Shown piece after piece: positions 5,605-61,242 of a stretch of DNA of 64,000 nt. This stretch comes from Eledone cirrhosa. Lineage: Eukaryota. A model generated the notes under the pieces. It did no database searches, was not told where the DNA came from, and was given only the letters and a program-made list of their open reading frames with translations. Made by a program: the position numbers and the translations under genes. Each line of letters opens with the position of its first letter. The stretch's first letter is position 1. Location: positions 28,458,001 through 28,522,000 of the forward strand of contig OZ024745.1 in the NCBI GenBank assembly GCA_964016885.1. Direction: 5' to 3'.

Positions 5605-5610
<6 letters not shown>

Positions 5611-6115
5611 GTTAAAAGTGTACATCCACATATGTATACTGAAATACTAGTATGCATATAAATACACACACGTATACATATGCACATGTACCGAGTTTTT
5701 CACTGGACACTTTACTGTGAGTGTCCAGCTAGTCTGTATGTAACCAAACAGACAAACCGGGTTTTAGAGTCATACGGGTTTTCAAGGAAACACCTTTCCT
5801 CTATTCTCCAGAGAGCCAGACAGGAATATTGGACTAGTTTCGATGTTATTACATCTCATCAGCAATATATACCCATCCTCCGGCTTCTCTAGAGAATCGT
5901 AAAAGCACATATCGTTATATGCTTTTTCTATGAAAATTAGTAGTGGGCAGACTAATTTGCATAGAACGTGAGTCATTGTACGCACCGGTTCAGCGGAAAC
6001 GATAAAAACAAATAACGAAACGAAATTAAATTTCGTTTCGTTTGTAACTCACTTTTGTATGACTGACGCTTAAACAATTAAGTTAAAAGTGTACATCCAC
6101 ATATGTATACTGAAA
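5605..6115 (-). mobile_element. Family A HHR element, about 1.1 units (471-bp period)
   Basis: Homologous to the 467-bp array unit; about 40-bp terminal direct repeat (5605 and 6076); flanked by (TA)n. Confidence 0.85.
5826..5868 (-). ncRNA. Minimal type I hammerhead ribozyme (family A, GUC site)
   Basis: atattg-CTGATGA-gatgt.aata.acatc-GAAA-ctag-TC-caatat. Confidence 0.9.
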
Positions 6116-6554
6116 TATATATATATATAACTCTGATACTGGTTCAGTCTAGTTCAACTGGATTGGTCTGTCCCAGTCATTCATCGAGCAACATCGGTGA
6201 AGTTGGCACCCTTAACTTACAGTTGGGTGCGGATGCATTCATGTATATATGTGTGTGTCCGCATATATCTGTGTGTTTCTAAATATATTGTTAATAACTC
6301 CCTCTGGTCGAGCAATCTTTGAAGTGTGGGGACAGCTGGAAAGCTTCCATTACTCATACTTCTCGCCTTCTTCACCACCTCTTCTACGGCCTCGATATGA
6401 ATACCCCCTCCGCCTCCGTGGTATTTTCTTCGGGGTTATAAGAGGCTTAGCTCTGTTTCTCGACCGTTATATCGCGTGACTATCTCCCCCTCCGCCTTTT
6501 GGGATTCTTTCTCACGTCGTGTAGACGCGTTCTTGAGACTAGTAAAATGAGGTA

Positions 6555-6780: not shown

Positions 6781-7047
6781 AATATTTATATATATATTTA
6801 TAAATATTTATATATACATATATATATATATCGTATATAAATGTTCGGTGAATCCATACGTGCATATATATATGTGTGCATGTATGTATATATATATACA
6901 TACTACTGTACATCTGTATACATATATGTATGTACGTGTACATGCTTATATTTAAGTAACAGCCGTACTAAGAGTGGAAAATGAAATATCGTTTCATTTT
7001 TTTCCGTTTATCGTTTTCGGTGCACCCGGCCGATTAACCCACTCGAT

Positions 7048-7095
7048 ATGCAAATTGGGCTACTCAGCCGTTAATATGCATAAGGTAAGTATATA
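7048..7095 (+). promoter_or_regulatory. Octamer ATGCAAAT plus conserved downstream motif (candidate snRNA-type promoter)
   Basis: ATGCAAAT at 7048-7055, then TAATATGCATAAGGTAAGTATATA; same order as in family A. Confidence 0.45.
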
Positions 7096-7122
7096 CGTTC
7101 AACAATCTGGCAGGAAGGTATA

Positions 7123-7163
7123 CGTTGCTGACGATAGCTAACAAGCTTGAAACTAGTACAGCG
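7123..7163 (+). ncRNA. Minimal type I hammerhead ribozyme (family B, GUA site)
   Basis: cgttg-CTGACGA-tagct.aaca.agctt-GAAA-ctag-TA-cagcg. Confidence 0.85.
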
Positions 7164-7432
7164 TTCCTTTGTCAGTGTTGAACAAACGAGCAACGGTGGT
7201 TGCTAGACACTACGGCTTAATACGGGATGTTTCTTTACAAACACACCGAGCATTATAATAAATGTTCGGTGAATCCATACGTGCATATATATATGTGTGC
7301 ATGTATGTATATATATATATACCTACTACTGTACGTCTGTATACATATATATGTATGTACGTGTACATACTTATATTTAAGTAACAGCCGTACTAAGAGT
7401 GGGAAATGAAATATCGTTTCATTTTTTCCGTT

Positions 7433-12867: not shown

Positions 12868-13366
12868 CATATATATATACATATACATGTATATATATGT
12901 ATATATATATATACATATATATATATACATATATATACATATATACATATATATATACATATATATATACATATATATATATACATATATATACATATAT
13001 ATATACATATATATATACATATATATATACATATATATATACATATATATATACATATATATATACATGTATAAAAACAAATAACGAAACGAAATTAAAT
13101 TTCGTTTCGTTTGTAACTCACTTTTGTATGACTGACGCTTAAACAATTAAGTTAAAGATGTACATCCATATATGTATACTGAAATACTAGTATGTATATG
13201 AATACACACACGTATACATATGTAGATGTACCAAGTTTTTTCACTGGTCACTTTACTGTGAGTGGCCAGCTATTCTGTATGTAAACACACAGACAAACCG
13301 GTTTTTAGAGTCATACTGGTTTTTGAGGAAACACCTTTCCTCTATTCTCCAGAAAGCCAGACAAGG

Positions 13367-13411
13367 AATATTGAACTAGTTTCGTTGTTGTTACAACTCA
13401 TCAGCAATATT
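13367..13411 (-). ncRNA. Minimal type I hammerhead ribozyme, array unit 1
   Basis: aatattg-CTGATGA-gttgt.aaca.acaac-GAAA-ctag-TT-caatatt. Confidence 0.85.
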
Positions 13412-13454
13412 TACCTATCTTCCGGCCTCTCTAGAGAATCGTAAAAGCACATAT

Positions 13455-13504
13455 CGTTATATGCTTTTTCTATGAAAATTAGTAGTGGGCAGACTAATTT
13501 GCAT
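13455..13504 (-). promoter_or_regulatory. Octamer plus PSE/SPH-like motif upstream of the HHR (present in each full unit)
   Basis: Minus strand ATGCAAAT-tagtctgcccactac-TAATTTTCATAGAAAAAGCATATA, ending about 45-50 nt before the HHR. Confidence 0.45.
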
Positions 13505-13833
13505 AGAGTGTGAGTAAGTACCGGTTCAACGGAGACGATAAAAACAAATAACGAAACGAAATTAAATTTCGTTTCGTTTGTAACTCACTTTTGTATGACT
13601 GACGCTTAAACAATTAAGTTAAAGATGTACATCCATATATGTATACTGAAATACTAGTATGTATATGAATACACACACGTATACATATGTAGATGTACCA
13701 AGTTTTTTCACTGGTCACTTTACTGTGAGTGGCCAGCTATTCTGTATGTAAACACACAGACAAACCGGTTTTTAGAGTCATACTGGTTTTTGAGGAAACA
13801 CCTTTCCTCTATTCTCCAGAAAGCCAGACAAGG

Positions 13834-13878
13834 AATATTGAACTAGTTTCGTTGTTGTTACAACTCATCAGCAATATT
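13834..13878 (-). ncRNA. Minimal type I hammerhead ribozyme, array unit 2
   Basis: Same sequence as unit 1. Confidence 0.85.
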
Positions 13879-14300
13879 TACCTATCTTCCGGCCTCTCTA
13901 GAGAATCGTAAAAGCACATATCGTTATATGCTTTTTCTATGAAAATTAGTAGTGGGCAGACTAATTTGCATAGAGTGTGAGTAAGTACCGGTTCAACGGA
14001 GACGATAAAAACAAATAACGAAACGAAATTAAATTTCGTTTCGTTTGTAACTCACTTTTGTATGACTGACGCTTAAACAATTAAGTTAAAGATGTACATC
14101 CATATATGTATACTGAAATACTAGTATGTATATGAATACACACACGTATACATATGTAGATGTACCAAGTTTTTTCACTGGTCACTTTACTGTGAGTGGC
14201 CAGCTATTCTGTATGTAAACACACAGACAAACCGGTTTTTAGAGTCATACTGGTTTTTGAGGAAACACCTTTCCTCTATTCTCCAGAAAGCCAGACAAGG

Positions 14301-14345
14301 AATATTGAACTAGTTTCGTTGTTGTTACAACTCATCAGCAATATT
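14301..14345 (-). ncRNA. Minimal type I hammerhead ribozyme, array unit 3
   Basis: Same sequence as unit 1. Confidence 0.85.
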
Positions 14346-14865
14346 TACCTATCTTCCGGCCTCTCTAGAGAATCGTAAAAGCACATATCGTTATATGCTT
14401 TTTCTATGAAAATTAGTAGTGGGCAGACTAATTTGCATAGAGTGTGAGTAAGTACCGGTTCAACGGAGACGATAAAAACAAATAACGAAACGAAATTAAA
14501 TTTCGTTTCGTTTGTAACTCACTTTTGTATGACTGACGCTTAAACAATTAAGTTAAAGATGTACATCCATATATGTATACTGAAATACTAGTATGTATAT
14601 GAATACACACACGTATACATATGTAGATGTACCAAGTTTTTTCACTGTCCTTCATCAGTGATCTTTAACTTATACATGTATATATATACATATATATACA
14701 TGTATACATATATACATATATATATACATATATATACATATATACATATATATATACATATATATATACATATATATATACATATATATACATATATATA
14801 CATATACATATATATACATATATATATGTATATATATTATATATATATAAATATATATATATATA

Positions 14866-15054
14866 ACGAAGGAAATGTGGTAAGGAACCAGATGGACCAT
14901 AACGCACCAAAGTATTCAATACTTAGGGTAGTAGAGTGGGTAATAGGAACGAGTAGGACCCCGACGGCTGAGCTCAAGCCGTTTCGACGGCTAATTCTGG
15001 ACCAAAATTAGCCGTCGAAACGGCTTGAGCTCAGCCGTCGGGGTCCTACTCGTT

Positions 15055-15059
<5 letters not shown>
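14866..15059. mobile_element. Fold-back element carrying only the 3' half of an HHR (family C)
   Basis: 54-bp arms 14943-14996 / 15006-15059; GAAA-cggcttgagctcagccg-TC; second copy at 61016-61205. Confidence 0.75.
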
Positions 15060-15110
<51 letters not shown>

Positions 15111-15406: not shown

Positions 15407-16034
15407 TATGAAAACATGGCGTGCTGCCTGGTTACAAATGGGTTACATATGAATAAATTTAGTCCTTCATCAGTGATCTTCCAACCTTCATTGGTATTTC
15501 ATCGCTTTAAAGACCATATACCTCCGGTTGGTGCGAGCAACGGCTAAAGAAAGTCGTTGGGACGCGCAGCACGTCATGTTTTCAAATTCGTATATAATTT
15601 CCTCCGCTGTGACCCGTCTGTTTCTTTCTTACTGATTCCCCTTTTCTCTATCTCTCACTTCTTTTTACCCCCTCTAACAGTCACTCTTTCTGTTAGCCTC
15701 ACACTTTCACTCACTCACTCTCTGCTACTCCCTCTCCTACTTCCTCCTGTTTGACCTGTGCGAGATTCTTTCCTCACGCACACTTTGACCAGGTCGGTTG
15801 TTCTTTATTCTCTCTCGTCTACGATTTCACAGAACTTATGTTCATCGATTTCAGGGACTTGACTCCTTCTTCCTCACTTTTCGTTGCATTACCATCTTTG
15901 ATTGGTTACAGTCTCGCTCGTTCCCCCTATTTACCTGTCCCAACGACTTTCTTTAGCCGTTGCTCGCACCAACCGGAGGTATATGGTCTTTAAAGCGATG
16001 AAATACCAATGAAGGTTGGAAGATCACTGATGAA
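15404..16034. mobile_element. Family D pyrimidine-rich element with nested inverted segments
   Basis: About 15464-15562 is the reverse complement of about 15937-16034; homologous copy at about 25495-26055. Confidence 0.7.
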
Positions 16035-22560: not shown

Positions 22561-23129
22561 AGAGATGATATAATAGTATATTAAATATCAAAAGATACAT
22601 AGTATATATAAATATAGTAAAATAAAAAATATATATTTATTGATACATATATTTATTATATCATTTATTATATACCAATTAGCGATTTTATTTGTTATAT
22701 ATTATTTACAATTTGCGTGTTGGCAGGTCTCTCAGGAAATAGGGATAGGGGTACTGGGGGTATACGTGGCCGAAACTCTGTTCCAAAAGAAAACTATATA
22801 GGGAGTTGTGAAAGGTGAAAAAAACATAACATATACTATTGCACTGTCTCTTCGTAATGAGAAAAATATGATTACAGCCTTACAGAAGACTTGCATACGA
22901 GACCTCCTGTCCTGCAACTGATCACAACAGTGTTTGTAGTGAAGAATTAACTGGTTGGTGGATATTACCTCGTGGGCCCAGCAGACAGAATTGTGAAAGT
23001 CTTACCCAAGAGGATAGCAAATAGAAAATATCAGCTGGGAATGCTCATTTGCATAGAGTGCGAAATTGGCTGGATATAAATAATAGAGAGTAGCATTAGG
23101 GTAAAGGGAAGAACCCCTTCAGTCACGAA

Positions 23130-35315: not shown

Positions 35316-35388
<73 letters not shown>

Positions 35389-35391
<3 letters not shown>

Positions 35392-35774
35392 GGAAAAGAA
35401 TGAAACGAAATTTCATTTCTCACTCTTAGTACGGCTGGTACTTAAATGTAAGTATGTATAAGTACATACATATATGTATACAGGCGTACAGTAGTATGTA
35501 TATATATACATACATGCACACATATATATATGTACGAATGGGTTTACCGAACATTTATTATAATATTCGGTCTGTTTGTTTGTAAACAAACCGAATATTA
35601 TTGTAAACAAACAAACAGCCCGAATTACGCCGAACAGTGTTCAGGCTTCATCGTCGCCCCTTTGTTCAACACTGACACAGGAACGATGTACAAGTTTCAA
35701 GCGTATTAGCTATCGTCCGCATCGTATACCTTTCTGCCAGATAGTTGAACGTCTGAACGTATATACTTTCCTTA

Positions 35775-35780
<6 letters not shown>
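35389..35780 (-). mobile_element. Family B element with decayed HHR (35684-35724)
   Basis: Reverse-complement homology to about 7075-7433; core mutated to CGGACGA; flanked by (TA)n. Confidence 0.8.
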
Positions 35781-60309: not shown

Positions 60310-60380
<71 letters not shown>

Positions 60381-60385
<5 letters not shown>

Positions 60386-60881
60386 CAGGTACACATATAT
60401 ATATGTACGTATCAGTTTAGCGAACGTTTATTATAACGCCCGCTTTGTTCGTTTGTAAACAAGCGAACAGCCTGATTTATGCCATACGGTGTTAAGGCAA
60501 CCACGTCACCTTTTTGTTCAACACTGACACAGGAACGATGTACTAGTTTCAAGCTTGTTAGCTATCATCAGCACCGTATACCCTTCTGCCAGATAGTTGA
60601 ACGTTCGAAAGTATATACTTTCCTTATGAAAATTAACGGCTGAGGAAAGTATATACTTTCGAACGTTCAACTATCTGGCAGAAGGGTATACGGTGCTGAT
60701 GATAGCTAACAAGCTTGAAACTAGTACATCGTTCCTGTGTCAGTGTTGAACAAAAAGGTGACGTGGTTGCCTTAACACCGTATGGCATAAATCAGTCTGT
60801 TCGCTTGTTTACAAACGAACAAAGCGGGCGTTATAATAAACGTTCGCTAAACTGATACGTACATATATATATGTGTACCTG

Positions 60882-60943
<62 letters not shown>

Positions 60944-60997
60944 TGCTACTGTACGTCTGTATACATATATGTATGTACGTATACATACATACCTATA
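60381..60997. mobile_element. Family B fold-back: 244-bp arms 60381-60624 / 60643-60886 with two HHRs (60536-60576 -, 60691-60731 +)
   Basis: One mismatch seen between the arms; cggtg-CTGATGA-tagctaacaagctt-GAAA-ctag-TA-catcg. Confidence 0.9.
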
Positions 60998-61015
60998 TAT
61001 ATATATATATATATA

Positions 61016-61202
61016 ACGAAGTAAATGTGGTAAGGAACCAGATGGACCATAACGCACCAAAGTACTCAATACTTAGGGTAGTAGAGTGGGTAATAGGAAC
61101 GAGTAGGACCCCGACGGCTGAGCTCAAGCCGTTTCGACGGCTAATTCTAGTCCAGAATTAGCCGTCGAAACGGCTTGAGCTCAGCCGTCGGGGTCCTACT
61201 CG

Positions 61203-61205
<3 letters not shown>
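61016..61205. mobile_element. Family C fold-back, second copy
   Basis: 52-bp arms 61097-61148 / 61154-61205; same left junction as the 14866 copy. Confidence 0.8.

Positions 61206-61242
<37 letters not shown>

Follow-up and report, generated by a model that had tools for sequence, protein, structure and literature searches.

A candidate snRNA-type promoter within the units of a hammerhead retrozyme of Eledone cirrhosa

The window, i.e. the whole 64,000-nucleotide stretch of Eledone cirrhosa DNA analysed, contains a tandem array of a repeat termed family A, together with further insertions of this family and of a related family B (Table 1). The family A unit is 467 bp long, has a GC content of 35% and a longest ATG open reading frame of 30 aa, and carries one hammerhead ribozyme, for which there are three identical Rfam HH9 matches in the array. 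The match listed has an E value of 1.6e-7 and 37.7 bits, under the gathering score of 52, and the Rfam search at the gathering threshold gave no match; its core, CTGATGA, is at 13398-13404 (minus strand), the predicted cut is after 13374, and compensatory stem II variants are seen among family A and B ribozyme cores genome-wide. The monomer, folded as a circle, has a predicted minimum free energy of -151 kcal/mol (z -9.8 relative to 30 shuffled sequences).

The 3' end of the array is at unit offset 433, at a TTAT, and its 5' end is truncated at offset 258. The 18 nt at the 5' junction are likely a template jump to nearby DNA; the other copy of these 18 nt, 800 bp from the junction, itself resembles part of another hammerhead core. 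No Penelope-sized open reading frame stood out near the array in the list for the window. In the deepest of four contig sets of uncertain type, no variant above 10% was seen at 13441-13508, and 13071-13232 is equally quiet, there being 13 such sites in all. Elsewhere in the window there is a decayed family B copy (35386-35776), truncated downstream of the octamer and with a damaged ribozyme core, and a lone CACTCTATGCAAATGAG (23047-23054, minus strand) with no ribozyme downstream, which may be a chance occurrence or a remnant. Both arrays, as well as many fetched loci, have next to them in (TA)n a different repeat that is abundant and has inverted arms (14868-15060 and 61017-61208); it is likely another Penelope-type end.

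Table 1. Positions of the repeat insertions, ribozyme and candidate promoter features (window coordinates unless a contig is given)
Feature	Position	Strand	Remarks
Second family A insertion	5605..6128	-	91% identical; octamer 5962-5955; 3' end at offset 359
Family B insertion	6861..7425	+	octamer 7048-7055; 8-nt deletion before ribozyme; variant motif TAATATGCATAAGG
Family A array	13071..14647	-	3.4 identical 467-bp units; flanked by (TA)n tracts
Type I hammerhead	13351..13422	-	minimal palindromic helix III; Rfam HH9 match
Predicted transcription start T|AG	13432	-	about 30 nt past TATA-like box; from host TATA-to-start distance of 28-31 nt
TATA-like box CATATAAC	13456..13463	-	offset 41-48 from octamer; inside second predicted hairpin (about 13443-13469)
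ACTAATTTTCAT, first half of the motif shared by families A and B	13472..13483	-	reverse complement of octamer arm, 11/12 pairs
PSE-core position by analogy with host U1/U2 (TCAG 25-28 nt before TATA)	13484..13489	-	family A reads CCCACT, poor match
Octamer box CTATGCAAATTAG	13494..13506	-	identical to box before host U6 (L002) and tRNA-Sec (L235); 5' arm of predicted RNA hairpin
Last-unit box of array (copy flagged earlier)	13494..13506	-	one ribozyme downstream
Same box, middle unit	13961..13973	-	two ribozymes downstream
Same box, first unit	14428..14440	-	three ribozymes downstream
18 nt at array 5' junction	14649..14666		identical to 15463-15480
Family B inverted pair	60347..61001		both arms cut downstream of octamer, so no octamer
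Loci with GTGCGGAT in place of the octamer (L154-156, L329-335)	C1:30.83 Mb, C1:85.31 Mb, C1:322.55 Mb, C6:54.09 Mb, C18:30.95 Mb, C410, C744		

The sequences from which an earlier note on this DNA had proposed a built-in promoter, i.e. the octamer ATGCAAAT (13504-13497) and a shared motif, TAATTTTCATAGAAAAAGCATATA (13481-13458), are present, all on the minus strand of the family A array. The distance of 70-85 nt given there between octamer and hammerhead holds if measured to stem I, the octamer end being 74 nt from the Rfam match, but not if measured to CTGATGA, which follows the start of the octamer by 100 nt in family A and by 88 nt in intact family B copies. The co-occurrence of octamer and motif claimed for both families stands for family A, but not for the family B copy at 60.6 kb, where the motif is present (60635) but the octamer has been cut off by the inversion junction. 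The shared motif consists mostly of the reverse-complement arm of a predicted hairpin plus the TATA-like box and is at most a putative PSE; a weak resemblance of offsets 11-30 to host Pol III promoters leaves room for such a role of part of it. The segment TAATTTTCATA, the reverse complement of the octamer arm, is common to the related families A and B only and changes with its partner in family D. In each of these three families TAATTTTCAT and the octamer arm are predicted to pair as a hairpin, a T-A pair being replaced by G-C in family D. The TATA box is in or beside a second predicted hairpin in all nine family representatives. The local folding z-score predicted for the hairpin region of family A is -6.1; host promoters fold unremarkably, with z-scores from -2.0 to +1.2.

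The comparison with host promoters proposed earlier was carried out with a consensus read from the DNA upstream of this genome's own small-RNA genes, and the box of the element does match host snRNA-type promoters. A ATGCAAATTAG box with at most one mismatch is present at -76 to -79 in all seven type-3 Pol III promoters (three U6 types, U6atac, RNase MRP and two tRNA-Sec), which also have a TATA at -30/-31, a box-to-TATA spacing of 46-48 in every case and a T|G start; these seven were selected from more loci, 26 U6 and 6 U6atac loci having been read. Of the U6 loci, 14 are dispersed copies without the box and 5 are array copies with the box displaced by an insertion, while the box is absent at 5/6 U6atac loci; all these loci were set aside as probable retrocopies or damaged copies, several being altered at the 5' end or located after (TA)n. 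The absence of the box from 14/14 dispersed U6 copies indicates that plain retrocopies lose it. In some U6 array copies (L007-L012, C19) a repeat is inserted between TATA and gene, the TATA region is duplicated and the box is pushed about 190 bp upstream. The family A box, YATGSWAATKAG, is an exact match to the host type-3 Pol III box and has the top score (21.0 bits) on a 13-bp matrix built from the seven host promoters; in 3 Mb of Markov sequence with the elements' composition, scores at or above that of the weakest host box occur at 6.7e-7 per site, i.e. about 3e-4 per 467-nt unit.

The octamer box is absent from all ten of the distinct U1/U2/U12 promoters read, in which the nearest sequences have at least 3 mismatches and are off-position; these promoters start with an A and have a TATA near -30 and, near -57, a TCAG core. 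In U13 the box is exact, lies at -75 and is followed after 42 nt by a TATA-like word, and U3 has a degenerate box (2-3 mismatches) at -73/-74 and a TATA at the same distance of 42 nt; the sequence of U3 contains internal T4/T6 runs, because of which its transcription is likely to be by Pol II. A distal word, TTAYCTCCCTT, is present at -257 to -288 in 12/17 host promoters checked, including both polymerase classes; families A and B contain nothing closer to it than 3 mismatches, and a search with distal word plus box returned U6 genes, U13, and chance or repeat sequence. Since the box is at -73 to -79 in host genes and U1/U2/U12 are without it, the octamer of the element corresponds to the host proximal box and not to a distal enhancer. 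Thus, the proposed 'octamer plus PSE' layout is right in that the octamer matches host U6, U6atac, MRP, tRNA-Sec and U13, but the box is a proximal one (about -73 to -79), and U1/U2/U12 use distal TTAYCTCCCTT instead. Matches to the host 3' box in the elements have 2 mismatches and are at varied places.

Several observations were made on the host genes themselves. The Pol II snRNA genes (U1, U2, U3 and U12; L043-L070, L211-L218, L238) have a TATA-like box at about -30, as in Pol III genes. The RNase P RNA gene (L190, C24:12936134) has a U1/U2-type upstream region (ATCAGT) and no octamer box, yet has a long T-run at its end. The U13 snoRNA gene (L196, C7:10.33 Mb) stands alone and has the distal word; a U1/U2-type 3' box is lacking, and a T4 is found nine bases beyond the end of the gene. 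A U8 gene was not found among the host genes searched.

The 3.0 Gb genome contains 8,090 exact copies of the family A motif. An exact octamer starts 86-102 bp upstream in 18,672 of 23,722 family A/B ribozyme cores (reversed-pattern controls, 0 and 7), these being counts of units, many in tandem arrays, and not of independent events. A pattern with U6 spacing gave 228 matches vs 1 in the control, 26/30 of those fetched aligning as an older hammerhead family, C, and the box combined with hammerheads of other helix III types gave 460 matches vs 0, comprising family D and rarer families. When selected by ribozyme alone, family D has an exact octamer in 23/30 copies and one mismatch in 2 more, the other 5 being truncated or inverted; family C, selected in the same way, is decayed, with the 11-mer within one mismatch in 4/15. 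The mean identity between nine family representatives is 0.95 for the box and 0.83 for the TATA, with 0.53 for spacer, 0.51 for leader and 0.52 for body, the shuffled values being 0.45-0.58 overall and 0.45-0.50 for the latter three regions; the conservation figure is partly circular in that families D-H were first found by a pattern requiring the octamer, from which A, B and the ribozyme-only test of family D are free. Conservation across copies, which the earlier note had made a check of its proposal, is thus apparent both in the family A/B cores and in the retention of box and TATA by nine diverged representatives. Depending on the family, between 3 and 10 of the 11 bases of the box are paired, with constant octamer letters and differing partners; such fixed letters with a varying partner favour a constraint on the DNA sequence, the RNA structure having been built around the box. 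One family A array (L336, C2:95.69 Mb) is made up of several alternating unit variants, which suggests a template of more than one unit, or homogenisation at a later stage.

The representatives fall into two classes with respect to the box-to-TATA spacing. In seven of the nine it is 41-43 (A, 41-43; B, 42), with AG at or within 2 nt of TATA+30, whereas families C and F have a spacing of 47-48, Y|GTGG at TATA+30 and a T4-T6 run directly after the ribozyme. The family A spacing is about 5 bp shorter than that of U6-type genes and matches that of U3 and U13 (42); its predicted start, T|AG at offset 72, differs from the T|G found 30 nt after the TATA in host Pol III genes. As a sequence pattern, a TATA-like box 28-31 nt before a Y|A start is found in family A (T|AG or C|AG) and in B, D, E263 and G (C|AG). 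At the position of the TCAG core, families B, E, G and H read TCAGC, CCAGC or ATCAG (p 0.02-0.12), and the family A hexamer scores not above background (p 0.46).

A matrix classifier covering the 30 nt before the TATA, octamer excluded, sorted 17/17 host promoters correctly in leave-one-out, and assigns U3, U13 and the seven short-spaced families as Pol II-like and the two long-spaced families as Pol III-like, though the short-spaced families are related, so that their 7/7 Pol II-like calls are not seven independent tests. When scored against 3,855 background TATA sites, family A gives marginal values (class score, p 0.09; difference, p about 0.05), the p values being clearer for E263 (0.003) and G264 (0.007). 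For insects, both PSE sequence and a conserved PSE-TATA distance are described as going with polymerase class (PMC1761439). An RNA of family A reaching from ribozyme to ribozyme would have to cross T5, T4 and T4 runs, for which Pol II is the better candidate; in family C a T6 would be in the way, and yet this family has spread, so that spacing does not map cleanly to the polymerase making the replicating RNA. Family C (L161-L189) and L254 are older hammerheads with exact U6 spacing, from which a Pol III transcript would be about 80 nt long and contain the ribozyme only; the T-run of family C is followed by ACAG|G, which looks like a 3' splice site too.

A lineage in which the octamer has been changed to GTGCGGAT comprises 71 units at seven loci (five on large contigs, two on small ones) with separate junctions, and is otherwise the sequence of the window, bar single-base indels. 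The three A>G changes are confined to the octamer hairpin arm, and the hairpin is kept as G-U pairs; a single A>G at the same octamer site was found at 2 more loci, while A>C/T there gave 0 matches. It could be that these changes reflect A-to-I editing of an RNA template that was then written back into DNA. The presence of the lineage at seven loci implies that some rounds of spread can do without the box: either copies lacking it continue to be transcribed, or a single edited RNA served repeatedly as template.

With regard to insertion, 45 of 51 family A alignment 3' ends are at one of two places, i.e. offsets 432-434 (27 ends) or 358-365 (18 ends), and most of them adjoin (TA)n; the 51 include 5 cross-hits to family B and two loci fetched twice. 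The 5' ends lie at scattered positions, and in most inverted pairs both kinds of 3' end are used, one each. Two-site internal initiation has been described for Penelope-like elements (PMC11167929), and the family A ends fit such initiation by a Penelope-like enzyme, just as the insertions fit the cycle proposed for retrozymes (PMC7229834; Li et al. 2026); mobilisation by Penelope is likely. The possibility that a conserved Pol III terminator, in the form of a 3'-end T-run, sets the insertion end was ruled out, as TTAT precedes the ends in both family A and family B and the depletion of T4 is not significant. A search for a footprint of the start site, i.e. an accumulation of 5' ends, or of targeted insertions, at offset 72, gave 56 + 20 matches; the junctions of the 30 fetched are scattered (2/15 at 72 for A, 0/15 for B) and mostly inversions.

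Taken together, the sequence comparisons make it probable that the elements have captured an snRNA-type promoter, irrespective of the polymerase that reads it. The more detailed proposal is that each hammerhead retrozyme unit contains a compact promoter derived from host snRNA genes (octamer, PSE position and TATA-like box), which is read by Pol II in family A; for this the balance is an even one. The predicted transcript would begin some 28 nt ahead of the ribozyme core and continue across the promoter of the next unit, the unit having no host 3' box and its T4-T5 runs being such as would hinder Pol III; two ribozymes would then cut out a unit-length RNA, to be circularised, and a Penelope-type enzyme would copy the circle into (TA)n, starting at an internal TTAT. 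Lying downstream of the cut, the promoter would, unlike an ordinary upstream snRNA promoter, be carried inside the RNA, its bases serving twice, i.e. as a DNA site and in two predicted RNA hairpins. The suggestion that the promoter of one unit transcribes the next agrees with the placing of the box in the cleavage-defined unit, but the copy originally flagged is in the last unit, with only one ribozyme downstream. Points against this proposal are that the octamer is typical of host Pol III and not of U1/U2/U12 genes, that the distal word is missing and that the GTGCGGAT lineage has spread.

The first of these points also bears on the possibility, somewhat improbable in our view, that the promoter is a real one belonging to the type-3 (U6, Pol III) class and having a shorter spacer, replication-competent multimers arising by read-through of weak T4-T5 terminators or by dual use as in human H1, a compact octamer-PSE-TATA promoter described as having dual Pol II/III activity (PMC7949045). 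The exact occurrence of the box in host Pol III promoters, and the exact U6 spacing and Y|G starts of families C and F, are consistent with this, as are offsets 11-30 of family A, whose octamer-anchored score on the Pol III matrix is a little higher than that of shuffles (p 0.02). By contrast, the family A spacing is outside the range of all seven host Pol III promoters, and its TATA-anchored Pol III score is -13. The tested A and B units have no T4 between the predicted start and a terminal hairpin plus T-run, but this absence is not significant (P 0.10 and 0.09); other A subfamilies have T5-T6 at offset 345, the three T-runs would have to be crossed between ribozymes, and the fixed 3' ends in family B follow TTAT and not a T-run.

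The folding data and the octamer-less lineage raise a different possibility, i.e. that an old promoter capture persists as a relic, now kept mainly as RNA hairpins in the circle, with the arrays being passively transcribed by host read-through. Both motifs are in predicted hairpins, in a circle that is itself predicted to be highly structured, the octamer-less lineage reached seven loci with its pairing preserved, the unit has no distal element, and stem I pairing reaches upstream of the predicted start. However, hairpin function does not readily account for octamer letters that stay fixed with varying partners and such variable pairing of the box, nor for a TATA at one of the two host spacings in all nine representatives, and the octamer-less lineage, which has 71 units compared with more than 8,000 for family A, could descend from one edited RNA; we therefore regard a relic as unlikely. 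That the match to host promoters arose by chance in AT-rich sequence is very improbable since, although TATA-like words are common in the genome (as in the 3,855 background sites in the examined loci), the box alone has the low per-unit expectation given above, strand and order are correct, and box and TATA are retained across families with near-shuffled bodies.

A more far-reaching scenario, speculative and on balance doubtful, can be built on the captured promoter. One captured snRNA promoter may have founded a radiation of ribozyme retroelements, in which a 5-bp change in the spacer would switch between Pol II and Pol III geometry while the promoter is folded into hairpins of the circle; the long-spaced families would give an 80-nt, ribozyme-only Pol III RNA able to supply the partner half for dimer cleavage, and an A-to-I-edited hairpin would have been written back as the octamer-less arrays.

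Among known systems, the element resembles the metazoan non-LTR retrozymes, as described by Cervera and de la Pena (2020, PMC7229834) and Li, Clavereau and Pollet (2026, 10.64898/2026.07.22.740005), in having protein-less tandem units with one type I hammerhead each, a low GC content, a self-paired predicted circle and a proposed mobilisation by Penelope. Its unit, however, is longer than the 170-400 nt (under 45% GC) reported for them. In the main texts of these two papers the word 'promoter' is used only for T7 in the former and is absent from the latter. With Penelope-like pseudo-LTRs (PMC11167929; 10.1101/2021.04.23.441226) it shares tandem or inverted 5'-truncated insertions, microsatellite targets, two fixed 3' ends and a hammerhead; by contrast, there is no ORF in its unit, the promoter reported for Penelope-like elements overlaps an intron and is not snRNA-type, and its 3'-end offset is about 70 nt, compared with a tail of 30-40 bp in those elements.

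Within the retrozyme literature cited here, transcription in animals is left open, a promoter being documented for newt satellite 2 and Schistosoma. In the main texts covered by a full-text search of the accessible literature, no account of an snRNA-type promoter was listed for any hammerhead repeat of an invertebrate. The present analysis contributes the reading of the 'shared motif' as a hairpin, together with the octamer-less lineage and the two classes of spacing. If the block is active, an invertebrate lineage has separately captured an snRNA-type promoter and keeps it inside a self-cut RNA, and the two spacing classes and the octamer-less lineage are natural variants for testing the choice between Pol II and Pol III. 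The snRNA promoter consensus from the host's own genes could also guide selection of a native U6 promoter for guide-RNA expression.

The internal promoter of the Schistosoma Sm-alpha element is tRNA-type, unlike the block of the present element, which is an external snRNA-type one. Otherwise, the Sm-alpha hammerhead SINE, which is described as Pol III-transcribed, has its promoter at the 3' end of the cleaved unit (PMC6765202), an arrangement similar to that proposed here, in which an upstream unit would transcribe the next. The human H1 (RPPH1) promoter is, like the block, compact (about 100 bp), with its octamer close to PSE and TATA, but belongs to a host gene, has a Staf site that separates octamer from PSE, and is associated with neither ribozyme nor mobility (PMC7949045).

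The parallel with the amphibian system, newt satellite 2, drawn in the earlier note extends to the logic of an internal snRNA-type promoter, but not to its architecture. The newt promoter, studied by Coats, Zhang and Epstein in 1994, reportedly has an octamer-plus-PSE layout. Satellite 2 is described as a tandem hammerhead repeat with an internal snRNA-type promoter reported to be used by Pol II (PMC2220036, PMC6765202). The element is likewise a tandem hammerhead repeat with a minimal palindromic helix III, its promoter being a predicted one; it differs in that its octamer is proximal (about -73), in having a TATA-like box, in a box that is like that of host U6/U3/U13 and not U1/U2 genes, and in the occurrence of two spacing classes.
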